Assembly: GCA_045837725.1 (NCBI GenBank)
Contig: JBEWZL010000209.1
Location: 620,001 to 649,273 of the forward strand
Direction of reading: 5' to 3'
DNA: 29,273 nt
Source: Vermamoeba vermiformis
Lineage: Eukaryota
Shown: in pieces, positions 4,481 to 29,273 of the stretch
Layout of the letters: each line of letters opens with the position of its first letter
Numbering within the stretch: position 1 is the stretch's first letter
The notes under the pieces: model-generated
Database searches by the model: none
What the model was told of the DNA's origin: nothing
The model's input: only the letters and a program-made list of their open reading frames with translations
Position numbers and translations under genes: made by a program

Positions 4481-4517
4481 TACGATAGAACGATGTTTTA
4501 GTCTAGTCACTCTTCGA

Positions 4518-4855
4518 GCGCCACAGAGGTATGAGAATAGCAAACGAAATCTCATTGGAAGTAATGCACTCTTTGAGCGCCACAGAGATATAGATTGCAG
4601 TCGATCCACGCAAAGATCCGCAATTCAAGCAAGTCCTCGTTGAGTGCCACAGAGGTGTTGATCTTCGAATTCGGTCAATTAATACAGTCATTTGAGCAAG
4701 GCTCATGTCGTGCGCCACAGAGGTCAACGATCGTTTCTCAATAACGAAATACAGTACTTTGAAGCTAATCACCTCCGGCGCCACAGAGTTATTAATTGCG
4801 TTAAATAGATGCAAAGATCTGCAATTCTAGTAAGGCATCATTGAGCGCCACAGAG
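4518..4855 (+). repeat. Phased array of six G(C/T)GCCACAGAG motifs, ~67-bp period, diverged spacers
   Basis: Copies start at 4518, 4577, 4644, 4712, 4778, 4845 (spacings 59, 67, 68, 66, 67). Confidence 0.9.
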
Positions 4856-5795
4856 TTGTCAGAGCCGTTTCAGCGCGGGTTATTTGGATCGAGAGCTGAT
4901 GCGAAAACGGTTCAGCCGTGTTATTTCGCATCAGCAATGCACCAGATCGACCACAAGGGTCGTAATATTATTTATTGTTGGATTATGAACAGCAGACAGT
5001 GACGCGCCACGGTCGCCACAGCCGTTCAGCGAGAGTTAATTGCATGAAAATTAGATGCAAACTTGGACTCGCATCAGATCAACTCCCCCTCCAAGTTACC
5101 ATTATTAGTATTGGTATAATTGATAGTCAACACGCGCCAAACGACTTCCAGCGTTGTTCCAGCACGAGACGATGAGACAGATCAACACAGCGCAAATCTC
5201 GGTGCAGCCCTGAAAAAAATAATTCCCATGCTGGAACTCCTCGCGCACATGGGACCGCCATGGAGCGGTTATTTTGACGTTAGTAGCGAACGGACCACCA
5301 TGGGTCCGTTCAAAAGTAATGTATTTTTAATGCTTCCATCGCGGCCAAGAGGCGATGGAGCGGAAATCCAGAAGAAGATCAGCGCGAGATCAGATGGCCA
5401 ACGGATCTGAGGTACTTTCGATAATAAATGATTTTTAAAAAGAAATATTATACTTATATTATACTCATATTAATGCTTGATTTATTTAGGAACATTCGTG
5501 GTCGCCCCAGGTACAAAATGAAAAAAGTTTGGTCCCGTTTTCTCCGCATCATGGCTCGTATCGAAAAGGTAGGTTCTTTATTAAAGTTTATTAATGAATT
5601 GATCAAAATCAATTTTTTAGAATTTTTGTTAGATCGCTCGACAAGATGCACGTAACTGTCAAGATCAGATGGCCCGCGGATCGGAGGTATTTTTGCTCGT
5701 ATGTGATTTTTAATAATAAATACTATTTATATGTAAATGACTAGCACGTCTTAGGCAATTTATGACAATAACCAAAATTTAGGTAAAAATTAATT

Positions 5796-6524
5796 TTATT
5801 CGTAGACTGAATACTCTTCGCCACTACATGTTATTTCATTCTTAAATTTGTAAGGCAAATTGTCATTTTTTGGTGATTTAACGGTGGTTTTGACGACCTT
5901 GGAAGTCTTCGTCTTGGATCGAGCAGTGGATTTACGTTTGGGGGCCGTTACGCTGCGCCTAATTTTGGTTAGTGCTACGCGCCCCTTGTTCTTCTTCCAG
6001 CTTGATCCAATATCGTAATCGTCATTGGCCTGTTCGTCGTTAGAAGTATTTGCGAATTCGATTTCAACGTCCTCTTCCTCTTCCGAATCGTCTGCATCTC
6101 TTATATTCAGCTTTGGCTTTGAGTAGTACTGACGAGTGACTTTTTGGCCTGGCGACAAGAAAGCGTTGTGATCCATCATAAAGACTATCGACTTGCGTTG
6201 TCCTTCTTCAAGGGCTAAATTCTCGTGAAGTAGCTCTCTCGATCTAAAGAAAATCATATCACCTGGTTTCAGTTCAAATCGTAGTTTAAGTTGTCGAAAA
6301 GCCAGATCTCCACCAGTATATTCTCCGAACGGAATAACGCAACAAAGCCCTTCAATTTCATCCTTATAACGCATAGCGTTAGTATAATTTTAATTTTTTA
6401 ACCACGTATTGCTTACCTTGCAGTCGTGGTGAGGAGTACTCGTGTGAAAATTGAGCGCGCACATCAAATAACTCTTGCCTAGAAGACGCTTTCTAGGCGT
6501 TTTGATGCCTCGGTAAGCATTATA
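5796..6524 (-). pseudogene. TET/JBP-family 2OG-Fe(II) dioxygenase, 5'-truncated (C-terminal ~225 aa)
   Basis: Exon 6524-6417 (..LMCALNFHTSTPHHDCK), 54-nt intron 6416-6363, exon 6362-5796 (DEIEGLCCVIPFGEYTGGDLAFRQLKLRFELKPGDMIFFRSRELLHEN..GQRKSIVF). HxD, distal H and RxS are intact. No credible upstream exon is visible beyond the 6524/6525 junction. Confidence 0.85.
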
Positions 6525-6594
6525 CTATATAGGAGGCTACTACAATTTAGGGTTATGCGTTCTACGGGCTGATAACACCCTTGCCTCTTATCTA

Positions 6595-6855
6595 GGGCGT
6601 AGTTTTGAGGACTACGCCCCTTCAAACCAGAACAGGGGTGTAGTCCTCGAAACTACACCCTTGCGAACCAGAACAGGGGCGTAGTCCTCAAAACTACGCC
6701 CTTGCAAACCAGAACAGGGGTGTAGTCCTCAAAACTACGCCCTTGCAAACCAGAACAGGGGTGTAGTCCTCGAAACTACACCCTTGCGAACCAGAACAAG
6801 GGCGTAGTCCTCTAAACTACGCCCTCACAAGCAAGAACAGGGTTGTAAACTACAT
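6595..6855. repeat. 41-bp tandem hairpin array (GGGYGTAGT-cctcraa-ACTACRCCC), five direct units plus one inverted unit
   Basis: Units start at 6627, 6668, 6709, 6750, 6791. The unit at 6595-6619 has the reverse-complement loop TTTGAGG. Confidence 0.95.
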
Positions 6856-7797
6856 GTGCAAAATATACATCTTATTTACCATGCTAATTCGCATGCTAAT
6901 TAGCATGCTATTTCTAAATGTGTGGGAAGCCAAACCAGAAAAGTGCAATGCGCCAGGGTTATGTTTGAGCTTACTCAGTAATGACTGCGTCAGTAACGGC
7001 AATGGCCACACCGCAGAATAAACAAAACAATTATTACATCAAAGCGGATGCGTAGAAAAGAGCGGGCAAGGCGAGGAGAGGGCACGAACGCGAAATTAAT
7101 GGTGGTGGTTTGTTGGCTCGTTGTTTAGTTTGTCTGATCTGAACCATTTTTGGCAATTACAAATTTTGTCAGCCCGTGACAGTCGACCAGGGCTTTCTTG
7201 TTTGCCGATGTGCTTGGCTACGTTCACTAGCTTGGCTGGCTAAGTGCGGCAACGAGGTGCCATAAAGCATGTTGTGCACGAAATTAACCAGGGTTTTGAG
7301 TAGCGGATCGGATCTGCTTGCTAATTATTTTTAACGTGCTCTTTAGCTTTAACAGCAACTAAGCATTGTGTCCCGCGACTAACGTTGTCTCAGATAATTA
7401 GGCTTTGACTCAACGGAGGCGGTTCCAGGTTCACCTCAGATCAACATTGTAGTTTTGCCATTATTATATAACATGACGAGATTAAGTATCAAACGCCGAA
7501 CAATAATCAGCAAGATGCAATGCGGAAACGTGGGCTTCAAAAAATAATTGGATCAAGCCGACAACTGGATGTACAATTAATTAGTATCGCTTAGTAAAAT
7601 GCCCGATACTGTTGTATCTCTCGAGACCATAAATAAAAAAAACACGCGTCAAATCTAAATTAGTACTGACGAGACGTCAATGATCACGTGCTGTTGTTTA
7701 TTTTTAGACGTCCGTAAAAAATTAATTTTTCAATCTCAACCCAACATAAACACGACGCCACACGTCGTATTTATTATTAATTACACGAGTACTGCCC

Positions 7798-8046
7798 AAA
7801 GCTCTACTCGTGTAAACCGAAGATTCAGCGCTTCCCAAAGACGTCGCTGTAATCTGAAAATCCGATCAAATCCAAAAGATTTGCTTTAATCGCAGCTATT
7901 ATATCTAAAGTATAATAATAAAGCTCTACTTTGTCGTGCAACGCAAAGGTTTCAGCGCTTCCCAAAGACGTCGCTGAATCTAAAAATCCGGGCAAATCCA
8001 AAAGATTTGCTTTAATCGCATTAATATTATATCTATAATATAATAT
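7798..8046 (+). repeat. ~122-bp tandem duplication upstream of gene A1
   Basis: AAAGCTCTACT..TTCAGCGCTTCCCAAAGACGTCGCTG..CAAATCCAAAAGATTTGCTTTAATCGCA occurs twice (from 7798 and 7920). Confidence 0.9.
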
Positions 8047-8134
8047 TGAAATTATTACGTACTCTCCACTGGCCTACGTGAATTAATTTGGCTGTCATTT
8101 TCTCGATTCAGATTTGATCGACGGAAATTTACAA

Positions 8135-10407
8135 ATGGTACGAATTTATGTGATTAAATAAATGATAATACACGTATTAATTTATTACTGTTATTTTTCA
8201 GGATCAACCGCTTCGTGTCAAAGTAGCAAGCTACATCCAGTTTTTAATGTTCGCGTGCAACCGAACACCAGCTCCAAACATCGATTCCTACGTGTCGAAC
8301 GTCTGCAAGATGATTGGGCAGTATATCAGCTCTTTCAATCGGCGTGAAGACTTTATCTTCTTCTTCTGCGTGTTCTGGTTTCACCAGATGTTGCCAGAAC
8401 ACGAAGACGGCAAGACGTACTTTCCGGCATGGTACAAGTCGTACCGCGATAAAATTACAGCCGCACTTGGAATCGACATGGGCTCTCCGGCATGGAAAGA
8501 ATTCGCCAACTTCTTTCACGGGTTTTACTCAATGTTCACGTGTGCCTTGAACATCGCCCAGTCAACCGTCAACAAGATTATCGTGCACCGGCCAGGCACC
8601 AACTATACTCAGGCTCTGCACACTGAGTACTACAAAATATGGATTGCCTTGCGTTATCATTATACTTACTGGCGTTCTGAGACCGAGCTGCGGTCACTGC
8701 TTGGCTCCGTAGACGTTTCTTTGCTTCAATGTGATTACGACCAACCATTTTTTACGAAGTTCACGTCATTCACGGTAGCACCTCTTCATTTGCCTTCAAT
8801 AGCACCGCACAGCACCGTTAGCGAGACCCCGCAACAGTACCAAAATACGCCGATGGGCTTCGTTTCTGGTTGCACAGGCTTGGGCTACGCAGCGTTTCAT
8901 CGTGCCGACTTTCTCAACACGAGCGCGCAAGCAATCTTTGTTGGGGCGAAGAGAAAGCTTGCCCAGACAGAAGAGACGACCCCGCAGCCCAAAAAACCAC
9001 GCTTAGACGTTCCTAACCCGGTGCAAGAAGATGAAAATTCACTCGTTATTTTAGAACCAGAACCACCAAGTCCAAGTCCAAGTCCAAGACCCAATTCTAC
9101 AGTGGAGCTGGTAAGCTTACTAGAGCCTAGGCCCTGATCGGCGTGTAAAAGGTCGAAGGAGTAACTAATTTGTTTCCTTGCAGGACTCTCCTCAAATTCG
9201 CGTGTCATATTCTTCGTCATCGTCTCCGTCGTCGCCAGCGTCATCATCATTTATATCCGTAGCCGAATCTGAAGGAATTTCTTTCTTGCCGGATGACTTT
9301 CAAGCAAAGTGTTCAACACTACAGGTTACGCACGACTTGTTTACCTCACTGAAGAAAAATCCAAAGGCTCTTTCCCGATATGAAAGGGTTAAATTAACGG
9401 GTTTTTCTTGTTCCTTGGCCGATCTCAACATCTTCGAATCTGCTCATTGTTGGGCTTTGGTGCTTGAAGATATGACGCTTGCTGAGCAAACTGAATGCGA
9501 ATCCATTAAACGGTATGAATTATTTATTACTTCAATATTAGGGTCTAATCTTGTCGCAGGTTGCCGCAAAAGTGTTTGGTCGTAACACCCGATCTTGACA
9601 CAAATCTCGTCCAACCTCTGTTAGCTGCCTGCCCGGACTTGGGAGCGATCCAGTTGCTAGGGATTAAGAGTTCTACTACACGGCTTGGTCTGGCGCTGTA
9701 TAACATGGCCCGCCTTCAATTTCTTCATCTAGATTCGGATGGCCACGTCACCAACTTTTACAATGCTTTCAAAGCGAAGACCTGCACTCAAGTATTGCAG
9801 GCAATATTCAAACGCGCTCCGAACCTCATTGGCTTGTTCATTCCGCTGCCAGACGAATCTGTCAGATTGGATTTGTCGTCCGTCAAATTCCCTCAGTCCC
9901 TGCATCTATTGGGTCTCAAGAGTCACGGGAGTAATTCAACAGTCGATATTCACGCTGTTGAAAACTTGAAAGTGCAGCATCTGGCACTTGTGAATCTGCG
10001 CATCGAGACACCAGAATGGTCTTACTCCGAGGATTCGGATGATTTATATGAAGACCTAGAACCCAAATATCCCTGGCTATATATTGGTGGTGACAACGAC
10101 AGATCTACCATGGAAATATTTTCGGACATAGTGCTGAATAGACCGTAAGTTGCTATTATTTTTCAACTTTTTATTTATTTAAACTAATAATTTGATTAAC
10201 AGATTTGGTTTTGAAGCACCTTCGTTGGTTCCGCAAACTCTGCTACCACTCCGGATGTTCTACGCAATTTTTTATCAAAGTGTGGCTGAAACTTACTCCC
10301 CGCAAAGCTCTCGCGCTACAGTAATTGAGCTATTTCGAACACTGCGGCCTTCGTATGAAGGATTTTACCCGGCAGTACCCTGTCGAACGTCGAACGAAAG
10401 AAGTTAA
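8135..10407 (+). CDS. Gene A1: unknown protein with helical N-terminus, NLS-like basic motifs, Pro/Ser linker and LRR-like C-terminal part
   Basis: Exons 8135-8137, 8202-9110, 9184-9512, 9560-10144, 10203-10407 join in frame through GT-AG introns. KRKL, KKPRL; LxxLxL repeats (LQFLHL, LIGLFI, LHLLGL, VQHLAL). The 3' end is uncertain because coding-like sequence continues in shifted frames to ~10616. Confidence 0.7.
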
Positions 10408-10675
10408 CTACAACCTATCACTTGCCGGCGATAATATTTTTATGGTGTTACCTCCGGACACCGCAGAGAGTGCGCGCCAAAAGTTCCTGTCGTTCAGAGG
10501 GTATTGAGCCCGCCAAATTTAACGCTCAAGCACGTGATACGCTGTGTTGGACCAATAAAATTACGGCGCCAGAGTTAAAAACGAATCTGCCCTCCTTGCT
10601 GCCTTGTCTATCTTGACACTGACTGAGTCACGTAACGCGCATTACTTCTACTACTCCTCCTATTCTCACGTTAAC

Positions 10676-13080
10676 ATGGTAAGTTTCCTGTCAAAGTAAA
10701 ATTGCACTGCTAGAGCGAATCGAATAATAGGTTTATTACTACTTAATAATGTATATTTCTAGTCGCAAAAAGATTACTTGGGCTTGGTGCGAAGCTACCA
10801 CTCTGAACGTTCTGGAGAATCTGCAAGCAACCACAACCAACCGGAGAGTGAACAGGAGTTTACTGAGGTAAGATTCGTTGCGGATTAACTACAAGCTTTT
10901 GTGGTTTAATATTTTTACATCCGTATCCAATTTAACATGTTTTTTTCCAGACTAGTACTTCTGTGCGAACGAACCCGGCACGCAAAGCCAAGGACGAATT
11001 CAATGCGTGGAGTTATTATGGTACGTCCTGAAACGATTTTTTCATCTTTTTTTGGATGCGGATTTAACATCCAATTTTAGAGTCGGATGAAGAAGTGTCC
11101 AGCAACATCTCGGCTCTTGAAGGTTTTGCTGAGCCTTCAGACAAGAAAGCAGCCAACACTAAATACTGGCTGAGCAACCCTGCCATGGAAGCGCACGATT
11201 GGAATGATCTTCACCAAACGGATGTCCCATCTGACGGGGATCTTGACTTCGTAGAAAACGACGAACAGCCTCTGCCCAACGATGAAGAGTTCATGGAGTT
11301 GGACAAGAGTGATGAGCAGGATGCTTACATGGACGAACCATCGTCCAGTGGTGATAGCGATTCCAGCTCCGACTCCAAGGCCAATGCTAGCAGCGACGTC
11401 GATTCCAGCTCTGAGGATGGTGACGACTCCAAGGCCAATGCTAACGGCAACGTCGATTCCAGTTCAAGGGATGGCGATGACTCGAAGGTTAATGCTGGTG
11501 GTGACGGCGATTCCAACTCCAAGGATGGTGACGACTCGAAGGCCAATGCTAGCAGCGACGTCGATTCCAGCTCTGAGGATGGTGACGACTCCAAGGCCAA
11601 TGCTAGCAGCGACGTCGATTCCAGCTCTGAGGATGGCGACGATTCCGGGGCCAATGCTAATGACGGAGACAATTCCAGCTCCAAGCGTGACGACTCCAGG
11701 GTCAATGCCAATGATCTTGATGGTCAACCAAATCTGCCTAAGCAAGCTCGTATGCCGCGTGGTGATGCTTCACGGCAGCGCGTTAATTCTACAACTGTAG
11801 CGCTGTCATCCCCTACCAGCCAAAAGACTAAAAGAGTTCGATTTAAATTGCCCACGATCGTGCGCACAAAAGCTCGAGACCATAAGCGCTCTTCTAAAAT
11901 ACTTCAGAAAGGTAAGTAGTCACTGCAGCAATTAATATAGATGGCTTATAATTTATTTCTAGATCGAGAAGCCTTGCGACTGAAGCGAGCGGCAAAGGCG
12001 AAGAAGCAATCTCATTACTCCGCAGGTCAGTATCAAAGTGAAATCAATTATAATTTACTAATTGTCTTTTAGAGACCAAGTGTAGCAACCTCAAGCAATT
12101 ATTGAAGGCGCAAGGTTCTCAAGAGGCGAAGGACAAGATAATTCACAAATATATCCGAGCGCTTTGTCAGAACTTGAATGTTCTAACCGAGTTCGGAGTG
12201 AATTGCTTGATAAAGGGCGAGGGCAAGTTCATTGGCTTTGGCTACAAAAAGAAGAAGTACAAACTCAAGCTTGCAAGCGGGGCAAAATCCTCCAAGCAAG
12301 GTGAAGCTGCTTGTCGGGAGGGTTCTCGTGCCACGACAACTTTGAGAACTGAAAAAGGTATTAGTTTTAAGTCAAATACCATTCTTTGACTAACAAACCG
12401 TGATAGAGCCGTCTGCTCGGGTTCGTAGTCTTCTTAACGAATGCCGTTTTCTTCGGGAGACCTACGAAAGGTTCTCGAACTTAAACAATGTCGGCTTACC
12501 TGCGGTTGCAACGACCCCAGGGCACGAGGTGCTGAGTTACTTCGTTTCTGGAGCGTTGGACCTAGAGTTCGATGAGAACGTGGACAAGGTCTCCAGTTCC
12601 ATCGATGCCCAACTTCAACTGGTCTCAAAACTTGAGCTTCGCGTTGTTGAGCTGACCGTCCTGATCAAGCTCAAGACCTTTTACATCGGTGCTCTCGTGG
12701 ATAAGCTGTCAGCTTTCTTTCGCGACAGATCGCACGCCGAAAATACGCAAGCCATGCAAGTGGAAGTGAACGACAATATCTTCAAAGTTTTGCAACACTG
12801 TGCACCTTCAAGTTTGGTTGCTGCCATGCCGGATGATCCGAACATTAAGAAGTTGGCTAGCAACGCATCCAAGTCGAACATGCAACGCAAGTTTTTCCGC
12901 CAATGGAAATTTCGGTTAAGCCGATTTTTTAGCATATGCTCAATTGAGCGAAAATTGCTTTTTACGGACTTGTCTCTCACGCAGATTGTGCGAACATTTC
13001 CGGACCCAAATTCGACAATGATTTTGTTCGATTACATTCGGACACATTCGGAAGAATATCCAGATTGGCTAACTCCTTAA
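10676..13080 (+). CDS. Gene A2: core gene 1, acidic repeat region plus conserved helical C-terminal domain; paralog of B3
   Basis: Seven exons from ATG|GTAAGT at 10676 splice in frame. C-terminus FFRQWKFRLSRFFSICSIERKLLFTDLSLTQIVRTF aligns with B3 AFRRWKSDLTKFFQLCSLKPVLLFSSLSYYFLVRSF. Confidence 0.8.
11356..11710 (+). repeat. Coding tandem repeat, 54 bp / 18 aa (DSSSEDGDDSKANASSDV), ~6 copies
   Basis: Seen in ORF 11095-11919 and in the DNA (gattccagctctgaggatggtgacgactccaaggccaatgct). Confidence 0.95.
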
Positions 13081-13086
13081 TACTAG

Positions 13087-16000
13087 CTTCGAGACATCAC
13101 CAACTCTTACCAGCAGGCAACTACCGACAATCGAAGTACGTAACTGCCTTCATGTTTACCGTAGCTAATTGTTTGTGAAAGGTTCTTCTATTTCACCTTT
13201 CAAAGTCAATTTTGATCTTCGCGAGTTCAACATGTCCGTCTGTGAAGGCAATTACGACTCAGACAAAGAAAATGCAATGGATTTTGATTTTTACAGTAAC
13301 AGTGAGTATTAATTATACATATAAATAATTCCTAACTGGTTGACGTGGTGCAGAAATGGACGATGCCGAGCTGGTTGAGGATCCGGAGTTGAAGCGACTC
13401 GAAGAAGAAGACGTTTGCACGCTTACTGGTAAGTTACAAAAGATGATATGGCGCCACTAATTATACTTCAGAGAATTGGCTAGCTGCCACCGAGTCCACT
13501 GGTCTATGTTATTTGGCACAACTTCGTGCGGCGCAGGGAACCCTTGATAGTATGTGCTGAGTCTTTTTACGAGTAGTGTTTAATACTCATTAACAGCACC
13601 TGCGTCAAAGCGTTCGACTTCGAGTAGAGTTTCTGCTCATCTGTCGCCCAACGTAGCAGAATCTCCTTCGAAGTGGCTTCGCAGCTCCCCAGTGAGCCCA
13701 AGTCAGCCACCAAGGGTGATGCCTCCCCGACGTTCAAGTCCGTTGCAAGTGCTCAATGCCACGCCTGAGCGACGATCACCAGCTCATGCGACACCAAAGC
13801 CCTCACAGCCGATTCGCACAAGCCCTATTCACTCTCCTTGTTTGTCTCCTGTGGGTTCGCCAAGCAACGACGAGGAAGACGTTGTGGGTTCACCAAATGC
13901 TTCGTGGTGCAATCACCGATCTGACGACGAAGAGTTCTCCGAAGCCTTTGTGGCCTCGCCAAGCGATGACGAAGAACTCTCTGAGAGCTTTGTGGGTTCG
14001 CCAAGCAACGACGAGGAAGACGTTGTGGGTTCACCAAATGCTTCGTGGTGCAATCACCGACCTGACGACGAAGAGTTCTCCGATGACTTCTACTCGTTGG
14101 TTAGAGACTGGCTTGCAGACGGCTCGGAGTCGAGCTTACCTGACCTGCTTCGATTCAACAAGTTGACTGATAAGGAGAAATCTGCCTTTTATACTTATGC
14201 AGAGCGGTAAGAGCAAATTTAAATTCCAGCCTGTTCGCTGACGTTTTGTTTACCAGTGATTTTATTGAGCACAGTTCGGGGCAGAAAGCTTACAAGGCTG
14301 AGTACCTCGATCGAATGCGCGCGGCACTTGAGACTGGCAGAGCTAAAGTTAGCGTCTACACTCAGCATTTGCTGCGAAACGCAAAGATCGTTAGTAGCGA
14401 CGCTGACTTTGGTTCTGATTTCGCGCGGGACATCGCTTGGATGACTTCCCAAGCCTATATTGGTCCAAGCTATCACCTCACGGCTAAGCACGATATGCAA
14501 ATCACCAGCAGCATCGACAACGATTTCATCGGCTTCGTGTTTGAAGATATTACCTTCATTAAGGTTCTAGTTGACCTTGTCTATTGCCCTGATTTTAGCC
14601 CGTCTGCAAAGCTCGACGATTGCAAGATGAAGTATGCTGGCAAATCTTTACACACCATTCCAAATATCTCGCTTGGGTAAGCGATACTTTTTGTTTGTTT
14701 CAAGCGCTGAATTATATTCTATTATTAGGTGCATTAATGAGAGTCTCTCGCTATACGTTACCTTTCCGTTCTGGGACGAGGATTGGGCGACTGTCATTCA
14801 CAGCTTTTTCAAAAGTTGTATCTATGAAGGTAACTTGGTTCGCTAAATCGATTACGACTTCTAATGTTAAATTCAGGGGTGCGCAACTCCAAACAAAACC
14901 GAACAGCACCGTTAGCGCCCTCATACGAGGTCGGTCTTAGGGTAACGCTACCCGGCATGACATTTTCGGCTAAATGTAGCACAATTAATAGTATTGGAAA
15001 AGCAATCAACGACTTCACGGAGCAAAACAAAAAGTAAGGTGCTAAACTACTAAATCCTATTAACGCTCTAATACAGGATGCAACCAGTGTTTGTAGTTCA
15101 ATATTTCGGACAAAAGGAGCCTGTTAGCCGGGCACGCGTCAAGAAAATCTACAAAGAGTTGGGCAAGTCGTTCGATATGGATATGGTGTACAATCATCGC
15201 CACGGGTCTAAAGCTTGGTTCTTCTTTGACATTGCCGAGGACTTTGCGTAAGTATAACGTTACTTTGTAACCGTATCTGTATTAATACCTTTTGTAGGTG
15301 CGGGGATCTCGAGAATGTAACGCTGTTTTTCACCCGAGAAGTCACACACTTGCTGAAAGACCGACAGCGATCCCCATTTGCGAGCTTGATGGTGCGAAAC
15401 TCGACTAAAACTGTACGAAAGCGTTCTGATGATCAATCAAAAGACTACAAAAGTTACACGTAAGTGCAGCGCGGGCATTGATTACGATTACTAATCTTCT
15501 CTTAAAGTTGCACAGAATATCCTAACTATGGGATTGGCTCGTTTGCAAGTCTAACGCTTCATTGGAAAAATCAGTACTCTCTTCTGCACAAAATTAAAGT
15601 TTACGACAAGTCGAGCGAAGTCTTCCGCCACAACTCGCCGTTCGCTGATGTCTGGCATGCAGCTCTCTCATTTCCTTTTCAGAGTGTTAAATCCTTGTTC
15701 TCTAGTGCGCCGGCTCTTTCAAAGAGACTGGAAAATCGCTTGAAAAGTGAAGAGGAGCAGGTTAGCGCTCGCACTCATTACAACCGTGCGGAGGCTTTGT
15801 ATTCTCAAGTATTGCCAGACAAAGCATACGGACCGCGAGTGGAGCTTACACTGCAAAATGCAACTTTGGAGGAGCTTACACGGGCCTATGACGCGCTAGC
15901 GGAGTTTGCAGAGGCTGTTGTATGCCTTTTCAACGTGACAAAGGCAATATATCAATGCGGTTTGGCCCCGAAAGAGATACTGCGGTGTTGCCCGATCCAA

Positions 16001-17549
16001 GCCGTGCAAACAGAAACATTATGTTCCATCCCTCGCATGTTCACGCGTAGCATTGCTAACTACTTCTACTCATTATTGCAGCATATAACGTCCGGTAAGT
16101 TTCATAATCCACTTTATTTTCGATTTTACTAACGAAAATCACAGCCAACCACTTGCAAGCATTCGCGTACAATGACCACTTTGTTCGTCTTGCATTTTTG
16201 CTGCAGGACCAATTAACTTTCATCTGGTCTGGCTCTGTTCAATCACTACTTCATCCGACGCTCTTCACTCGGTACAAGCAACCAGAAGCTGTGTTTGAGT
16301 ACGGACACTTCTACGTGAGCAAAGAGCTGCTTGTGCCTAGCCTAGACTTTGCAAAGGCTAGATTGTATGCAGTTTATCGTGAGAACGAGACCGACAACGA
16401 TGAAGTTGACCTACTCGACGTGGGCTTACCGCGCCAGTTTATTTACAAGATATTTCCGGACGCCAGCGATCAACAAACTCTTAACGAAATCTTAACAAAT
16501 GTGCGATTATGCTTGTGCTCGTCGGATGGTGTTGTGTCCCCAAAAGACAGATCCATCAGCTCGATTTTAGCTGCCAATTTGGTCAACTCTCTATTTGCGG
16601 CCTTGTTTAGTGCAGCGAACATTGTCTCGTCATCCAAGAAGGCGCAATTCGTCAAGTTGTTGCAAGGAAAGGATCGAGATGCGATCAAGTCATTTCTCGA
16701 GCGCGCTTATTTAACACAGACGAGTTCTGAGACTCCTATCGAGGTACGGAATAATTAAATGCTCGATGGCGTTTCTAACGTCTTTTTAGATACTTTTTAA
16801 AGAAGGATTACGAAGTGTTCGTGACATCGTTGACATTGCATTCCCTCTCGAGCCAACAGATCAGCCATTTAACCGCACGCCAGTGAAAGTCAATTTCGCT
16901 AAACAATGGACTCTCGCAACAAAATCCGTCATCGGGCATCTGAATGATCGCTTGAAGGTTGGCAATTTGAAAGCAGCGAAGACTTTGCAACATATTCGGT
17001 CGTACACCCACGACATCCTAACTGCGGAATCCATCGTTGCGAAAGTGCGTGGCTTGCTGTCTGACTTATCCTTGCGGTTCTTCCCTGCTTTCTCATCGCA
17101 TACTTTCTGGGGCTACAATGGCAAGTTTAAACTCACTGCAGTAGTACCTAGCTCACGACCTCGCGTTTTGCAAATCATCAGTGGCAAACCTATACTAACG
17201 GAGTCAAAACAAGTCATCGACAACGAAGCCAAACTTCGCGTAAGTTGCTAAGTCGTGTATAGCACCGTAGATTTTGCTAAGTTTTTTTCAGCTTCTTAGG
17301 TATATCTGCATGCATTCTAAGGAAGTAGAGGGCGTAAAAAGCCGATCTGAACTGCTCGCGCATTGCACGTATCACGCTTTCAGAAAGACGGACATGACGG
17401 TTAAAAGACCCAAGTACCACAACGCTGAGAGGGACTTCATTTTCGCGACTGGCTTATTCCCGTGGGTTCCTCCAAGAGCCCAGATCTTGCCCGCGCCAGA
17501 TTCGGTGTGGTTAAAAAAGTTCCGCGATATTTTTGGCAAGGAAAACTAG
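13087..17549 (+). CDS. Gene A3: core gene 2, large multi-exon protein with Rep_trans-like motifs (putative rolling-circle initiator/transposase); apparently intact
   Basis: About 14 exons splice in frame to TAG at 17549. Motifs IDNDFIGFVF (14513), FFDIAED (D at 15228), KIKVYDK (Y at 15602), GPRVELTL (R at 15836). The start is either shared A2 5' exons or ATG 13232. Coding status is well supported; the function call is inference. Confidence 0.75.
13850..14083 (+). repeat. ~93-bp coding duplication (VGSPSNDEEDVVGSPNASWCNHRxDDEEFS), 141-bp period
   Basis: Near-identical copies at 13850-13942 and 13991-14083. Confidence 0.95.
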
Positions 17550-17840
17550 TTTGTAATGCTCTGTTATTGCAGTAAACATAACTCAATATTACTCGCGCAT
17601 TCAACACGTAAGTCTCAAGCACTAAAAGCCAGAATAATGTTGATTTGTTTTGATCCGGATCTTTTCTTTTACGTTAATTTACCCCAAATTTACTTATTTT
17701 TATTTGTTTATATGTCATAAATTACGATATTAAAAATATTTGAATTAAATCATGCGAGTCAAAATCTTGCATCCGAATCCGCAATTAGTATACTATGTAG
17801 GGCTAACTTCTACTTTAGGGTTTAACTTTTAACTTTTTTT

Positions 17841-18135
17841 ACAGGGGCGTCCCCGTGACGTGGACGGGGGTCTGGTCAAACTTGGTCAACAAGGGGGCGT
17901 CCCCGTGGCGCGGACGGGGGTCTGGTCAAACTTGGTCAACAAGGGGGCGTCCCCGTGGCGCGGACGGGGGCTGGTCAAACTTGGTCAACAAGGGGGCGTC
18001 CCCGTGGCGCGGATGGGGGTCTGGTCAAACTTGGTCAACAAGGGAGCGTCCCTGTGGTGTGGATGGGGGTCTGGTCAACAACAAGTGTTCCCACGGCACA
18101 GATCAGGGTCTGGTAAAATTGGTCAACAGGAGGCG
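17841..18135. repeat. 50-bp GC-rich tandem array with CCCCGT-ggcgcgg-ACGGGG hairpin, ~6 copies decaying rightwards
   Basis: Unit aagggggcgtccccgtggcgcggacgggggtctggtcaaacttggtcaac at 17841, 17891, 17941, 17990, 18040 and a degenerate copy at 18080. Confidence 0.95.
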
Positions 18136-18243
18136 TTCCTGTCACATTAAACATCATGTAGAGGGCTTGTATTGACTTCATTTAAGTGTAAAATAAAGAT
18201 TTCATGTGCCAATACAAAGCGAGTGTTTTTTTAAGTAATCAAA

Positions 18244-18301
18244 TTTATGGCCAGCCATAAAGCTAAACAGACTGAGGATACAAATTATGGCCAGCCATAA
18301 A
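18244..18301. repeat. Two copies of the palindrome TTTATGGCC(G>A)GCCATAAA
   Basis: 18244-18261 and 18284-18301; same motif as in the 20.2 kb and 25.2 kb arrays. Confidence 0.9.
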
Positions 18302-18433
18302 AAAAAAGGAAACTGGATGAACTCTACCTTTAAGGTGAGGCAGACAAGTTCTTGAGACAATTTTACCCAAAATAAAAGAGCAAGATGTCAAAGTACAAGT
18401 CACATTTACCAAAAGACGTTTTTTATTGAAAAT

Positions 18434-19899: not shown

Positions 19900-22800
19900 A
19901 TGGAAGACGTGGTAAAAGCGCGCGAGATCGTACAACAAAATCTGCCAGAATTGCCCAGTGAAGTAAGTTAAAATACTAAATTTACCTGGCAAATAATTAT
20001 ATATTATACCTTGCAACCAATAAACTGGTTTGCCTTGGTTTTAACTGCTTTTTTTTTTTTTAATCCGCATCCGGATCTTTTTTTTTAAATTAAATTCTTG
20101 CCTGGCTTCAATTAGTACACCAATTATATTATTATAATTAGAATTTTAAAATTTTAGCTTAAATTAAACCAAACTGCTGGACAAAGGAACTTACGCACCT
20201 TACATTTTATGGCCGGCCATAAAATTTTTACCAGGACTAAGTCCAAAAATGCCTCAAAGGCGCAGGTTCGAATCCGGGTGGGGGCAATTTTTTTTATTTT
20301 CTTTATGGCCGGCCATAGAGTCCTGCTATATTGCCTCAAAGGTGCAGGTTCGAATCCAGGTGCGGGCAATTGTTTTTATTTTTCTTTATGGCTGGCCATA
20401 GAATTTCTACTGCACTGGAGCAGGTTTGAATCCAGGTGCGGGCAGTTTTTTTATTTTTCCTTTATGGCCGGCCATAGAGTCCTGCTATATGCCTCAAAGG
20501 CGCAGGTTCGAATCCGGGTGCGGGCAATTATTTTTATTTTCTTTATGGCCGGCCATAGAATTTTTTTATTGCAGAATTACCCTGTCTTCTTTTTTTTCTT
20601 ATGTTGGCCACCTATCCAATTATTTCTAGTATAAATCAACACATAGTTGTCTTTTTTTTGGACTTTCTGCATCGAATCTGATCCGATTCAGATGCAGTGT
20701 AGGTCATCAAACACAGTGCTAATTATATTTTTACAGACATTTGCCTTGGATACCTCACAGTACGAGGTTGTTACAGAGTTTGACACGTTAACTGACAGGC
20801 CTTGTGCAAATCCCGGATGCGCACAAACCGAGTGCTACCTGTAAGCAGCACTCCATGAAATTAACTTGTTAATTTTTTCTGCAGCTTGCCACATTTGAAT
20901 GTTTCCTTTTGCAAGCAACAGCTTCAACAGGGAGCAACAATGGTTACGTTGTCGGAGCCCTTGTACTCCAAAGGTAGCTCAATTAAAGGACGAGGGTAAG
21001 ATGACAGAAATATACATATAAGTAGATGATTATAATTCTAACAAACCTCCTTTGTTGCAGCTTTAATATTCGTGAGTTGTCCATGGATCATGTCAAGCGA
21101 CTCATGTTAATCTGCGTGCCATGGTACTCAAGCCAAGGAACTCCAACAGTCGTGCCAATACGACATAAAGAAACAAAGGAGTATGGCTATGCTGTTTGCA
21201 TTGGTATGTACTATATTTGTCTGAAGACGTCGTACTTTTTTTAATTCAATTTGCCCCAAGGACAACATCGTGCTCTTGTGGGTCATTACTTTATGCAATG
21301 GAAGTTGATTGATACAATGCAAGTGAATATTCTTTTGCCATCAAGTATGCAGGTGAGTAAAGAATTGAATGGTGTAAAAAACATGACTAAACTTCTTTTA
21401 GGACTTGTACAACAGAGGATTGGACATGCAGAAGAATGACACGAAACACTTTTTGGATCTACATGCAATGGATAAAGTGCTTCTAATCCAACAGTTATGC
21501 GACTCAATGGCTAAAATGGATGGAACCACTTACCCAGAGGCTACCCAAGCAAAGCAGAACGAGTATGTCAAAAGAGCAAATGAGGCACTCGAAAACCAGA
21601 AGCTTGGTATGCAATATATATCTTTTAATTATTTGCAAAGTACTCATTCTTTTTTTGGTACAGGTGATTGCGTGCAGTTGTTCAAATTTTTACCACGACA
21701 GTTATTCTCAGATCCAAGTGTTGTTCTGACAAGTTATCTCACACTGGCCAATGTTTTCACTGCGTAAGCTAACCACCAATTGATATTTGGCATTCTAAAG
21801 TATTGTTTTTTAGGAAAAAGCAACCATTTACTGTGAAGAACTTACTTGGAGTTGCTATTAAGAATATAGCAGAGAAAGACAAGGTGGAGCTGCTGACACG
21901 ACTAATTGAACGCACCAAAAACTACCAAAAATGGTGTATGTTGATTTTATTCCCAGATTGTGTTAAACTAATGAATATTACTTGTTAGGGCTTGATAGGC
22001 GTGAAGAAGCTCTGAAGCACTTTGCTACAACTGGCAGGAAGAAAAGTTATCTCCCTGATCAAATGAAGTGTAAGTAGTTAATTGATTAGTATTCTTACTA
22101 ATAATGACTTTTCCTCAGCCGTGCCAGAAATGCCTTCATGGAGGGAGGAGATAGTTATATGGCGTGGCAAAATGCTGCTAAAGGAGAGGTGCGTGCACAT
22201 CTTGAATCTTCCTCTTGAAGAATGGGATTCGGATTTGCACAAGACAGCAGAGAAGTTTTTTGTTGACAACCTTCAACAAGGGCTTTTGGCTAGTGAAGGC
22301 CAATACTTATATGAATCAGAATTCTCCCTGCAGCTGGGCAAGATTCCTAATTTTGCACAAGCAGTGAAGAAGTGGATTGTGCCAAGATACATGTACTACG
22401 AGCCTTCTCAAGTTTCTCAGGTGCTGGCTGAAGTTAAGAAGGGTGTTATAATCACTCTTTCTTCGTACAACCTCACTCCTGATGCCTTTACCCTGCTCTA
22501 TGGTGATCGTAACAAATTGCCAACAATCGGTAAGCTTATCTGACTTATTGTTTTGCCAGTGGTTAGTATTAATGTTAATTTCTTAGCTGTTCTACCTCCT
22601 GAAGTAGCACGTAGTGATAAGATTCGTCCATATTTCACAGCTCTTTGGATAGATGAGAATTGCGCCATTGGCATTCGTAATTTTGATTCACTGTGCAAGA
22701 CATCAGTACAGCTCAATGCATTTTTTGAGTGTGTTGCTTGGGGAGTGACAGATGGCAAACTGCTTCACAAAGAAACCAAAAAGACTGCCATCATAAATGG

Positions 22801-25118
22801 AATCCTATTCGCTGGTAAATTTTAAATCAAACTTGTATATTTTCACCTGCTTTAACTTTTTACCTGTAGTTACTTCATGCAACCAACGTAGCCAGGTTGA
22901 TAATGTGATTCTGTTTGGATTAGTTTCAGTTGGGGAGCTGAAAAACTTGCTAACAAAGAGCATTACAATTCATCATTTTGGAGATGACTGGAGCAGAGAG
23001 TTAGCTAATGTTCCCAAATCTGGCTTCGACTATGGCTTCTATGACTCACTCTGGATGGCTCATCACAAGCTTAAAGTGGAGTGGCGCCAAAAGGCAATGC
23101 AGAAAGATGTTAAGGATGTTCCCACTGAGCCCCAGTTATTTTGGGGTACATTAGATGAATGTGGGGAGCTTTTGCGAATCCAAAATGAGTACCGGTAAGA
23201 TAATTGTTGTTGAAATAACTTGCTGCATGTGTAACTTGTTTATTTAGGATCAAACCGCAATTCCCTGAAAAATTCAGTATTATCTCGGGGTCTGATTGTT
23301 ATTGGATGTCAGAAAAGCAAGTAAGGTTTTCACAATCAAATGCGCTGAAACATGCCGTTGGATTGGCAACAGGTATTTAAAAGAAAAGAAAGGGCTTTCT
23401 TCAATGTTTCTCACCAATTTATTTACAGCAAGATTACAAACCAAGTTCGATCCGCGTTACTATAGAATTCGAACAAGCAATGCATATCAGTTTTGGCATC
23501 CCTTCCCTGACTGCATTGATGTTGAAACCAATACTTTGTTTGAGATGTATGGTGAAAACTGCGCTGGAGTTCGTTGCATTGCACCTTATTTCTACAGTGA
23601 TTGGCAGATCCCTTACTCAGTAAGCTTGCTTACATGCAACACAGTGTATTCTAATCACTTGCATAGCTGTGCACTCGGTTTTTTTACCTGAAAAGCAATT
23701 TTTCTGGCTCTATCTATTGGGTTTTATGTCCTGTGTTCACGTTGGAGGAAGGATTTCATGACTTGCCAACGTGTAAGGTTTTTGTGCACTTTTTGATTGA
23801 TGCTAACCTTTTGCTAGGGGATATAAAAGAGGAACCAGACAAGTCATTGACATTTATCCGTCAAGATCCGGGTCAGACCCTCTTAATTCCGTTCAACTAT
23901 GCCTATCGGTACTGGGTTTTGCCTGATTACAATTTGGATACTCAAATTGAAATGGAATTGCATCCTCGCACTGCAACATTGTTGGAGTATTTCCATGCTG
24001 AATGGTACTGGGGCTACTCTTCTTGGGTGGGAACCAAGTTAAGTTATCAAGATTCGTTGTTGTTCCTTCTAAAGGGATCAGCAATTGATTTTGAAGGTGA
24101 TGTGGTTTCTGAGAACATTAGAACGAGTCTCCTGCCAAAGCTGATCAAGTTTGCCCTGCGAAACCCTCCTAAAGAGTTTGGAGACTTTGTTCATCAAACT
24201 GAATGCACTCGGTGTCACCGTTTAATCTCTTTGGCCTTGTTCGGAACATCGCTCAAGACAATTCATTGTTTCATGTGCGCTTTCATTGATCAAAGTGAAG
24301 ACCACGAAGGTGCTGAAAATACTGCATATGCCATGAGTGTTCTACATGGAGTCCATCCACTGCATGTTATCTTGGGAATAATACGGTATTTGTTTTTTCA
24401 ATCTAGTTAACTTTTCTAATTGTTTATTAAATACAGAGCTATTGCAAGACTTATTGAAGCTCTTCCCGACTGGAATGATGAAGAAGCAAATGCAGCTTTG
24501 AAAAAACGGCGGCAAGCTATCGAAGATATTTTGAGAAGCAATGAAGGTGATAGGCAGAATGAAGAGCGCAAGCCAATTGAGCCAAAAATTCCAAAACTGC
24601 CTTTCATTGAGCACATTCCAGGCACCAGATACAACTTGTTCATGATCCAATTTCCAGGCAACACAACAGTTGTGCCAGCTTGCGACGATGTTCCGCTTAT
24701 ATTTTCTGAGGTACTTCCTGAGCCAGTGCCTCAAACGGCAAAACAGAGCAACACCAACAAAACCACTGCATCCAAGCAGAATGTTGATCCAAAGTTGACA
24801 GAGAAGGATTCTGGTGGTCAATCTTCTAATGCAGATTCAGATGGTCAATCTTCTGATGCGGATTCAGATGAGAAATCAAGCAAAGGGACTCCAAAAACCA
24901 AACAGAAACAAACAAAATCCCCTGCAAAAAAGAATGTTGTTGTTTCAGTTGAGTCAGATTCGGAGGAGACTGATGGAGGCAAAGAAGCAGAAAAGTCTCC
25001 TCAAAAGGGCTCTGGTAAGAAGACGCCAGAAAAAGGCAAAAAGAGAAAAAATCAGGAATCGGCAGAAGAAGGAGAGCCAAAATCAAAGAAAAGAAGGACG
25101 GATCAGCCTGCCAAGTAA
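19900..25118 (+). CDS. Gene B2: ~1,200-aa, 17-exon protein; ParB/Srx-like domain + degenerate JmjC (KDM6-like) + C4 Zn finger + basic NLS tail
   Basis: Exon 1 19900-19962, 774-nt intron, then short GT-AG introns all in frame. ParB-like: NIRELSMDHVKRL..PTVV..YAVCIGQHR..DKVLLIQQL. JmjC-like: NTLF..AGV..PYFYSDWQIP..GSIYWVLCP..FIRQDPGQTLLIPFNYAY. Zn: CTRC..LF..IHCFMCA. Confidence 0.75.
20205..20559 (+). repeat. ~80-bp unit array in intron 1 of B2: five TTTATGGCCGGCCATA palindromes alternating with four Pol III B-box (GGTTCGAATCC) motifs
   Basis: Palindromes at 20205, 20302, 20385, 20461, 20542; B-boxes at 20265, 20347, 20423, 20505, each followed by a T-run. Confidence 0.95.
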
Positions 25119-25183
25119 TTTTGCGTAAATAAATTGGGCTGATTATATTAAAAAGATTGCAGTGTATCAAGTACAAAGAAAAG

Positions 25184-25450
25184 TTTATGGCTGGCCATAA
25201 AGAAAAATAAAAGTTTTGCAGCCACCAGGATTCGAACCTGCTCCTTGATATTAGCCAGATTTTATGGCCGGCCATAAAATTTTTACCAGGACAAAGTCTA
25301 AAAATGCCTCAAAGGCGCAGGTTCGAATCCGGGTGCGGGCAAAATTTTTTATTTTCTTTACGGCCGGCCATAAAATTTCTACTGCACTGGAGCAGGTTCG
25401 AATCCGGGTGCGGGCAATTATTTTTCTTTTTCTTTATGGCTGGCCATAAA
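25184..25450. repeat. Second palindrome/B-box array between B2 and B3: four palindromes, three B-boxes (first inverted)
   Basis: Palindromes at 25184, 25260, 25357, 25433; GGATTCGAACC at 25228, GGTTCGAATCC at 25320 and 25395. 25259-25450 nearly duplicates units of the 20.2 kb array. Confidence 0.95.
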
Positions 25451-25669
25451 CATTTGCTACTAGCTATGAGCTTCATATGCAATTGTTGTAAGCCTAATAG
25501 ATAGTTTCTGACTGTTATTTGTTACTGTTTGTACGTGGTGAGTTTTGACCGTCAAAACAGTTTGCCGACCAAATTTTGCACGTGAATGCACACCCCTTAT
25601 TGTGAATCTTTGTTTACTGTATTGTCAACTAAGAAATACAACTATTTTAAATTAAAACAAACCTTGGAA

Positions 25670-27818: not shown

Positions 27819-29273
27819 AAATCCTTGGTGGAGCGGATAATATGCCACAGACTGGCCAAATTACAGCTAACTCCCACTTCTGCCCATAATCGTGCAGTTG
27901 AGGAGCGTCAGCAATGTGACAGGATGAAGAATTTCATCAACAAGGAAATCAGCATTGACACAAACCCAGCTTCAGAGGATTCGCCAAAGCAAACTCAACA
28001 AGACAACGGTAACAGCCTCCTAAACTAATCATAATTGATGTTCTAACATCTTTAATAGCAACCTCAAGTGATTCAGACGAGGAATGTGGCTCATTTGATT
28101 TATTTTCATCAATAGACGATTCAAGTGTGGCCTCTTTGAAGCTGTTTTCATCAGCAGAAGATGATTTTGAAGATTCAGTAAGCACCATCAGATATATTTT
28201 GTAGTTTGAATTAATCATTTGCAAAGGAAAATCTGGAGAAATCATGCTGGTTTGATTTAACAGAGTTGGAAGTTAATGAAGCAAATCTGCTTCGTGCAAT
28301 TTCTAGAATAACAACGTAAGATTCGTTGTAGATTTACAAAACTAATTTTTTTTTAGACAAAACAAGCTGATAAAATCTGTCTATAACCAAGACAAGGGAG
28401 AACATGTTTTAGTGAAGGTAATTAAGGGCTTTGTCAATAGCTTATTGACTTTGGTTACAGACTTCGAAGGATTTGCAGCACATTCATGAAAATCTAGAAT
28501 GGATGTCTAGCTGCAATACCATGCACTCATATGAGCACGATCCATTCAGAAAGCTTGATTACCAAATGGATTTGGATGCAACTGTAATTACCAGCTCAAA
28601 ACTGAACTTTGTGAAAAGCCCAATGCAAATGACAGTGTATCCACGAGCTAGTGATGCAATGGCAAAATCCAAACTGATTATCAATGGCTCTGCATTGCAT
28701 AAGAAGTTAAATGCTTATTTGGGGTAATGTTGATTATGAGTAAGGAAAATTATTAATTTTTTTGAATAATGAAGGGTAGGAGTATACTAGAAGAAATAAT
28801 AATCTAATGCTTTAACTAGAGTTGAGGTTCTCTTTGTAATGCAAGTGTTTGGTGACAAAATGGAGGTTAAGTCATCTTCCGAAGTGCATGCCTATCTGAC
28901 AGAGATTGAGCGCCACTTCATGCTGCCAAATCAGAACAATGATACCAAACACCAATTTTTTCAGGATATTGCAGCAGATATTGGGTAAGCCACTCTGATA
29001 ATTTGCTCTTCAGCTCTAAACAGATGCTAGGGTACATAGAAAGAAGGGAGCAAAAACAGAGTACTTAACAACCTGGAACCCATTGGTTTTGGACATTTTT
29101 CTCAATTCAGAAGCATCACCATTAAAGTCCTTGATGGGTACTGGTTCTACAAGAGCAGGGCGTGTTTCATCATACCCCCAGCTTGGGAGTGCATTGATCA
29201 AAAGTGCAATGGCTCGTTATGCAAACAGAAAAAACAATCTGTTTGAAGTGAAACTTTATTCTAGAGCCAGTCA
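27819..29273 (+). CDS. Gene B4: core gene 2, paralog of A3 (Rep_trans-like), incomplete at the window edge and lacking two exons relative to A3
   Basis: Spliced: ..MDLDATVITSSKLNFVK..VYP..GSALHKKLNAYLG|VEVLFVMQVFGDK..FFQDIAADIG|..SPLKSLM..YPQLG..EVKLYSR. A3 reads IDNDFIGFVFEDITFIK..YCP..GKSLHTIPNISLG..PVFVVQYFGQK..FFFDIAEDFA..SPFASLM..YPNYG..KIKVYDK. Three phase-2 introns sit at matching positions. Confidence 0.8.

Follow-up and report, generated by a model that had tools for sequence, protein, structure and literature searches.

Does the largest gene of a tandemly arranged unit in Vermamoeba vermiformis (Eukaryota), which is also the unit's last, encode a DNA-nicking enzyme and, if so, of which kind? 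The window analyzed here is a stretch of 29,273 nucleotides (nt) of GenBank assembly GCA_045837725.1 (contig JBEWZL010000209.1, positions 620,001 to 649,273, forward strand), which holds two head-to-tail units, A and B, the second running past the end of the window. The gene in question, A3, stands at the end of unit A and has a distant paralog, B4, in unit B. An earlier note on this DNA had read A3 as a rolling-circle initiator of the Rep_trans type (pT181 RepC/RepD). We found that A3 is a genuine gene, spliced and coding for a protein; its family is unannotated and narrowly distributed, and four short motifs in the Rep_trans order are conserved in it. The explanation developed below, which we put forward tentatively, is that A3 is the unit's own tyrosine-plus-metal DNA-nicking and -joining enzyme, with a fold that is neither Rep_trans/TBP-like nor DDE. 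Two further nuclease readings, a Rep_trans fold and a DDE transposase, are improbable one by one; since the three together give a nuclease of some kind about an even chance, this is the reading we prefer.

The window has a eukaryotic look, with short GT-AG introns carrying CTAAC-like branch sites that interrupt open frames. Manual splicing gave the 12-exon model of A3 listed in Table 1, in which all 11 introns are GT-AG and range from 43 to 52 nt. When this model was compared with P0043, a full-length intronless open reading frame (ORF) of 1,236 amino acids (aa) from another organism that was retrieved by cluster look-up, the two proteins proved 57.5% identical over 1,172 aligned residues. Genomic fragments of the same cluster (P0037, P0039, and P0041) end at exon ends or continue into the intron, and P0043 and P0042 read through the exon ends at which these fragments stop, so that P0043 most likely represents a spliced transcript. 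The A3 model is sound, and an A3-type gene is probably expressed, at least in the organism of P0043. The description of A3 as an intron-rich eukaryotic gene is thus supported by both the model and the ortholog. As a separate observation, exon 3 carries a 141-nt in-frame direct duplication (13850–14089; copies 97% identical), and one aquifer-metagenome contig (run X3) is without one of the two copies (joint 13849 to 13991), which makes the region polymorphic in length.

All four motifs share one reading frame of A3 and follow one another in the order that had been claimed; reading the sequence with the splice model placed each of them exactly where it had been reported. The DxD of motif 1 is kept in all six sequences that cover it (P0037, A3, and P0048, all of the A type, and B4, P0051, and P0052) and the Dx[AG]xD of motif 2 in all three real rows (P0043, A3, and B4). 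KxY, in the form K-x-Y-x-[RK]-x-S-[EQ], is kept in eight of eight sequences and is the best-conserved motif of its region, while the R and E of RxE are invariant in 11 of 11 (10 of 10 in a smaller alignment). At the level of the motif, then, the presumptive catalytic tyrosine appears in the expected context (Y-x-K or YxxK), as K-x-Y-x-[RK] in eight of eight, and the candidate metal ligands D, D, and E are, as far as an alignment can tell, conserved and ordered as in Rep_trans. In B4, the D of FQDIAAD (28965) and the Y of VKLYSR (29257) were found at the reported positions, and LDATVI lies at about 28573, one base off the reported 28572.

How far does this resemblance to Rep_trans go? According to a 2026 paper (PMC13107129), RepC uses Y191 as its catalytic tyrosine, and its metal ligands are D46, D142, and E214. 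We aligned a sample of eight plasmid Reps, which yielded 18 invariant columns, including D46, D142, A144, D146, R189, Y191, K193, E196, R212, and E214; the Rep_trans motifs cited in the earlier note (RLDLAFD, RIYNK, and WRVEIEL) are indeed present in pT181 RepC and invariant in this alignment. If residues ~330–720 of A3 formed a TBP-like Rep_trans fold, D343, D531, Y623, and E703 would correspond to D46, D142, Y191, and E214, i.e., to the published catalytic tyrosine and metal ligands, all invariant in the eight Reps. This register accounts for 10 of the 18 invariant columns (D, D, A/G, D, R>K, Y, K>K/R, E>E/Q, R, and E), but the other eight (N113, P114, R140, T176, Y178, G180, S184, and P237) have no counterpart in the A3-family alignment. 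FNPN, the Arg of RxDxAxD, ETxYxG, S184, and P237, invariant in 8/8 Reps, are thus all missing in register from the A3 family, and the Arg before DxAxD is absent from A3 itself, as had been cautioned. The spacings also differ: the D–D, D–Y, and Y–E distances are 188, 92, and 80 residues in A3 versus 96, 49, and 23 in RepC (two to four times longer), which bears out a second caution, about the long Tyr-to-RVE interval. The D–D distance of B4, ~99 residues by hand count, is close to the 96 of RepC and falls short of that of A3 because B4 has no counterpart of A3 exons 5 and 6. A3 is, moreover, a eukaryotic protein of 1,221 aa with 11 introns, known here from sequence alone, compared with about 310 aa for the Reps (pT181 RepC/RepD, RepDE 4CWC, and RepSTK1 4CIJ).

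Similarity searches did not link A3 to Rep_trans. No Pfam family, PF02486 included, matched any of seven A3 exon pieces or full-length P0043 at E ≤ 10, while pT181 RepC, used as a control, scored 36.5 bits, above the cut-off. A search of the PDB sequences gave no Rep match (its two hits at E 0.46 are unrelated proteins), and the A3-family profile retrieved no PDB Rep chain at E ≤ 10, whereas the Rep profile retrieved 4cwe, 4cwc, and 4cij. The profile-profile comparison suggested with the original claim turned out against it: hhalign gave a probability of 0.2% for the family versus the eight Reps and 0.15–0.8% (local, relaxed, and global modes) with a fuller family alignment, both profiles being shallow (Neff, the effective number of sequences, 2.3 and 3.3). 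Its best local match, 11 columns long (RKCKIYYRGSE / RFIRIYNKKQE), nevertheless falls exactly on the Tyr motif, a point in favor of Rep_trans.

Next, position-specific scoring matrices were built from six Rep_trans blocks, and the best ordered chain was scored against shuffles. In single sequences, the six-block score was equaled by 49 of 300 shuffles for P0043, where the best chain bypasses the proposed sites, and by 86 of 300 for A3. With column shuffles of the cleaned family alignment, the observed chain score was equaled in 62 of 2,000 (four blocks), 106 of 2,000 (three), and 212 of 2,000 (six), so that the six-block chain does not exceed chance. The proposed sites rank 6, 1, 1, and 2 of 1,236 positions, with low block scores (−2.7, 3.8, −1.7, and 3.1 bits); motif 2 is the top-ranked position for the D142 block, and when sites are chosen freely, the optimal chain goes to different positions for the D46 and E214 blocks. 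These results are borderline (P ~0.03–0.1, uncorrected, for a hypothesis drawn from the same data), and the sequence evidence for Rep_trans is at most suggestive. The proposed Rep_trans identity is therefore neither established nor refuted: its motifs are real and conserved, but every sequence-level test was negative or borderline, and eight of the 18 invariant columns lack a counterpart.

The negative tests weigh little, because archaeal Rep_trans relatives were recognizable by structure alone, according to PMC13107129, in which Rep_trans enzymes seem confined to bacteria, with archaeal cousins newly found. These archaeal initiators, Rep-Arvir (DUF7845), offer a precedent for Rep_trans-like enzymes hidden from sequence methods, with the tyrosine in a divergent context (KHYYM; same source). 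Unlike A3, which we compared by sequence, Rep-Arvir was linked to Rep_trans through confident models and mutagenesis; P0043 has no Pfam match at E ≤ 10, in a Pfam copy whose inclusion of PF25227 was unchecked. In the literature searched, part of which was available to us, no eukaryotic Rep_trans element was found described.

Structure prediction was the second check proposed with the Rep_trans claim (AlphaFold models compared by Foldseek), and it gave poor models. The AlphaFold2 model of P0043 residues 261–795, which spans all four motifs, reached a mean predicted local distance difference test score (pLDDT) of only 34. The model of P0002, from the Tyr motif to the C-terminus, reached 53 and is mostly helical; in it, the Tyr stands at the end of a short strand, and R-x-E lies in a second one. 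The underlying alignments had 12 and 25 rows (A7 and A10, respectively), with A3 exons 5–8 and the B4 exons left out because MAFFT scatters exons of 33–56 aa, and we attribute the low quality of the models to the small family with few homologs. Foldseek returned no match at E ≤ 0.001 for either model against the PDB or for the P0002 model against viral models, and there was no Rep chain among the matches listed. An RNase H-like fold and a lack of conservation or clustering of the four residues had been named as observations that would count against Rep_trans: modeling yielded no RNase H-like fold, and the residues are conserved across the homologs found, while the model at pLDDT 34 is too poor to show whether they cluster.

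The same acidic residues could alternatively belong to an RNase H-like DDE transposase, with D343, D531, and E703 as the catalytic triad and the tyrosine incidental. Three invariant acidic residues do occur in D, D, E order, the second D closes a hydrophobic stretch (hhhhD-x-[AG]-x-D), which may resemble the beta-4 motif of hAT-type transposases, and helices 52–85 of the P0002 model (pLDDT 71–76) would form a helical insert between the second D and the E, as in hAT-like and other DDE enzymes. However, the unit has neither terminal inverted repeats nor an inverted copy of its end word, no Pfam transposase matches A3, and E703 would lie in a strand, not a helix, in the low-confidence model. The KxY block, best conserved of the region, is not needed by a DDE enzyme and would be left unexplained. 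We therefore regard a DDE transposase as improbable, to about the same degree as a Rep_trans fold.

Still less credible is a degenerate P-loop or SF2-helicase N-lobe at A3 residues 330–730, in which YAGKS would be the Walker A motif and WFFID the Walker B motif. AAA_34/ResIII clusters topped both ESM Atlas feature searches with a score of 0.84, but calibration shows this score to be no better than noise, and the two queries, which overlap, amount to a single source. The [AG]-x4-GK[ST] pattern is not matched, no Pfam helicase matches A3, and the ESM Atlas lead was set aside on account of the Walker-A-like Lys, which is kept neither in P0052 (AGVS) nor in B4 (NGSA). PD-(D/E)xK and HUH readings of A3 were likewise dropped, the residues they require not being conserved in the family alignment as inspected by eye.

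The setting of A3 bears on the choice between these readings. Unit A is a one-directional unit of ~11.3 kb (6521–17788). Unit B, which starts ~240 nt past the A3 stop, is strongly diverged and shows the same gene order: the C-terminus of the upstream gene A2 matches that of B3 (tblastx E 2e-9, 36% identity, 64 aa), so that A2-A3 corresponds to B3-B4. Between the two units, protein similarity has fallen to ~25% identity or past detection. The composite word TATACTATRTAGG-N12-TTTAGGGTT, in contrast, occurs in two places in the window, at the two unit starts, on the (+) strand only and with the same 25-nt offset; within the window, the end word has no inverted copy, and the unit ends are not linked by inverted repeats. 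The tandem repeats inside the 5′ ends fold into hairpins, which are strong in unit A (single-strand fold −44.9 kcal/mol, z −11) and modest in unit B (z −2.3). Three DNA contigs from the same organism (run X1) join at 6519/6520 and have at least two different left flanks, and contig depth is 564 over the unit A end repeats and 462 over the unit B end repeats, compared with 22.7 in the flank; the left end is thus repeated in the genome. None of the 17 exon or ORF pieces scanned from both units had a Pfam match above the cut-off.

This is how a family of elements that are old, diverged, and one-directional and that lack inverted ends is built. The context favors a mobile unit and, since such units lack inverted ends, a tyrosine-type or rolling-circle-type mechanism over cut-and-paste DDE transposition. 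It also agrees with Rep_trans systems, in that the unit has asymmetric ends, near-end tandem repeats able to form hairpins, and a head-to-tail array. The fuller version of that idea, that A3 and B4 are the first eukaryotic Rep_trans/TBP-fold tyrosine nucleases and power the rolling-circle-type copying of ~11-kb elements that make up a new class, bear introns, are arrayed head to tail, and have a TATA/CTATRTAGG start with lineage-specific tandem repeats near that end, we hold to be unlikely.

Helitrons, whose RepHel protein joins an HUH Y2 nuclease to a Pif1-like helicase, resemble the unit in being eukaryotic and in having asymmetric ends, head-to-tail arrays, and no inverted repeats. A3 differs from RepHel in that it has no conserved HUH (its HRH is not kept in B4), and Pfam finds no helicase or Helitron domain in P0043. 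Hairpins at 6462–6507 and 17752–17772, 13–16 nt ahead of each unit junction, recall the Helitron 3′ hairpin; they are weak and not significant, the junction folds (6440–6560 and 17700–17830) being no better than shuffles (z −0.95 and +0.79).

From the conserved residues and this context, we infer how a tyrosine-plus-metal A3 might work. The unit would encode A3 as a protein that nicks and joins single strands, in which Y623, the invariant tyrosine of K-x-Y-x-[RK], would serve as the nucleophile and a divalent metal would be held by the likewise invariant acids D341/D343, D531/D535, and E703. Its site of action may be the conserved 5′ word TATACTATRTAGG or lie close to it, and the tandem-repeat arrays adjoining that word could be its binding sites.

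The main rival to this mechanism, a serious possibility although short of probable and, as a single alternative, slightly likelier than the mechanism itself, is that A3 is no nuclease at all. It would be a lineage-specific cellular or endogenized viral protein, structural or regulatory, whose motifs arose by chance, and the two units would stem from a gene cluster that was duplicated in tandem long ago and whose copies share a promoter or boundary element. Such a protein would fit the motif-chain tests, which are not convincingly above chance, the largely helical model in which no enzyme fold was found, the N-terminal 250 residues, which are of low complexity and rich in Ser, Pro, and acidic residues, and the size of the family, 34 clusters among 1.84 billion representatives. 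It fits less well with the 13-nt and 9-nt words, which persist with identical spacing at both unit starts despite the divergence of the proteins, with the recurrence of the left end next to other flanks, and with the invariant residues, which are polar or catalytic in type.

Several further results weigh against A3 as the nicking enzyme of a mobile unit. PHROGs and NCBIfam gave no match, and no nuclease, transposase, or Rep similarity emerged from Pfam, PHROGs, NCBIfam, or the PDB sequences. Over the C-terminal 600 residues, the predicted structure is mainly helical and of no known fold, and both models are poor, with no Foldseek match at the threshold above. A3 itself is at single-copy depth (22–28, counted at ≥95% identity), a point shared with the non-nuclease reading, and part of the high depth over the tandem repeats is due to copies inside the array. 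Mobility is deduced from one window and the contigs, in which no empty site, target duplication, or 3′ end could be defined. Two RNA raw-read runs under the same species label contributed 0 reads and are uninformative.

What would each outcome mean? To our knowledge, Helitrons, with their HUH nucleases, are the only rolling-circle transposons of eukaryotes. A eukaryotic element built on a different tyrosine nuclease would, with or without a TBP-like fold, represent a new class of mobile DNA, and a true Rep_trans enzyme would extend an ancient superfamily to the third domain. On the cautious reading, two units of >11 kb with repeated, defined ends, in which all scanned gene regions fall outside known families, make up an unclassified element. 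If the motifs are due to chance, they provide a useful warning, since four ordered and conserved short motifs gave only P ~0.03–0.1.

The family behind these alignments is small. A full phmmer search of the 1.84 billion representatives yielded the 34 clusters at E ≤ 0.001, all of them fragments. Word-index and phmmer searches returned exon-sized fragments only, except for P0002 (623 aa), P0043, and P0042, the latter two being members of the P0002 cluster; the N-terminal motif region is covered by just six sequences. B4 matched A3 by tblastn at E 0.07 and was also placed in the family alignment, where P0046 is its close relative. Metagenome collections scanned by peptide pattern and by unit-end word gave no match, nor did the viral contig collections scanned. 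The coordinates of A3, its motifs, and the surrounding features are collected in Table 1.

Table 1. Features of the two units, in window coordinates
Feature	Position	Strand	Remarks
Gene A3	13356..17549	+	12 exons, 1,221 aa; manual splice model, no internal stops
A3 exons 1–6	13356–13428, 13472–13549, 13597–14206, 14257–14676, 14729–14829, 14877–15033	+
A3 exons 7–12	15077–15247, 15298–15459, 15508–16094, 16145–16743, 16790–17239, 17292–17549	+
Motif 1, IDNDFIGFVF (D341, D343)	14513..14542	+	Proposed equivalent of RepC D46
Motif 2, FFDIAED (D531, A533, D535)	15222..15242	+	Proposed equivalent of RepC D142/A144/D146
Motif 3, KIKVYDK (Y623, codon 15602–15604)	15590..15610	+	Family pattern K-x-Y-x-[RK]-x-S-[EQ]-x-F-R
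Motif 4, PRVELTL (R701, E703)	15833..15853	+	Family pattern G-x-R-x-E-x-[ST]-x-x-N
Unit A 5′ end: TATACTATATAGG, 12 nt, TTTAGGGTT	6521..6554	+
Tandem 41-nt hairpin-forming repeats (at least six)	6554..6881	+	Inside unit A 5′ end
Conserved C-terminus of upstream gene A2	12886..13077	+	Matches B3 at 27560–27751
Unit B 5′ end: TATACTATGTAGG, 12 nt, TTTAGGGTT	17789..17822	+	Directly after A3 3′ region
Tandem 50-nt repeats	17817..18114	+	Inside unit B 5′ end
Gene B4, distant A3 paralog	28461..29273	+	Truncated by window end; read by eye
B4 exon pieces	28461–28724, 28820–28984, 29031–29273	+

Other observations concern the unit ends and the neighboring sequences. At both unit starts (6546–6554 and 17814–17822), TTTAGGGTT includes one plant-type telomere repeat unit, TTTAGGG, which may be a coincidence. 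Contigs of runs X1 and X3 carry the same foreign sequence upstream of 12813, which points to another locus or allele whose match is limited to the part from the A2 C-terminus onward. Within A2, five 54-nt tandem repeats (11370–11747) code for a Ser/Asp-rich low-complexity stretch. Unit B contains ORFs at 23296–24410 (+) that look cupin/JmjC-like by eye (e.g., TFIRQDPGQTLLIPFNYAYRYW) and have no Pfam support. It also harbors, at 20204–20557 and 25167–25459, a repeat family resembling miniature inverted-repeat transposable elements that is built on the palindrome TTTATGGCCGGCCATAAA and occurs in both orientations, with shorter copies at 18241–18312. To the left of unit A, an ORF at 5796–6389 (−) has a weak Tet_JBP/2OG-Fe(II) oxygenase match (E 0.0028, below the cut-off); Tet_JBP-type genes accompany transposons in some fungi. 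Farther left, at 4508–4859, a 25-nt word (CGCCACAGAG core) is present six times at a spacing of 59–68 nt.

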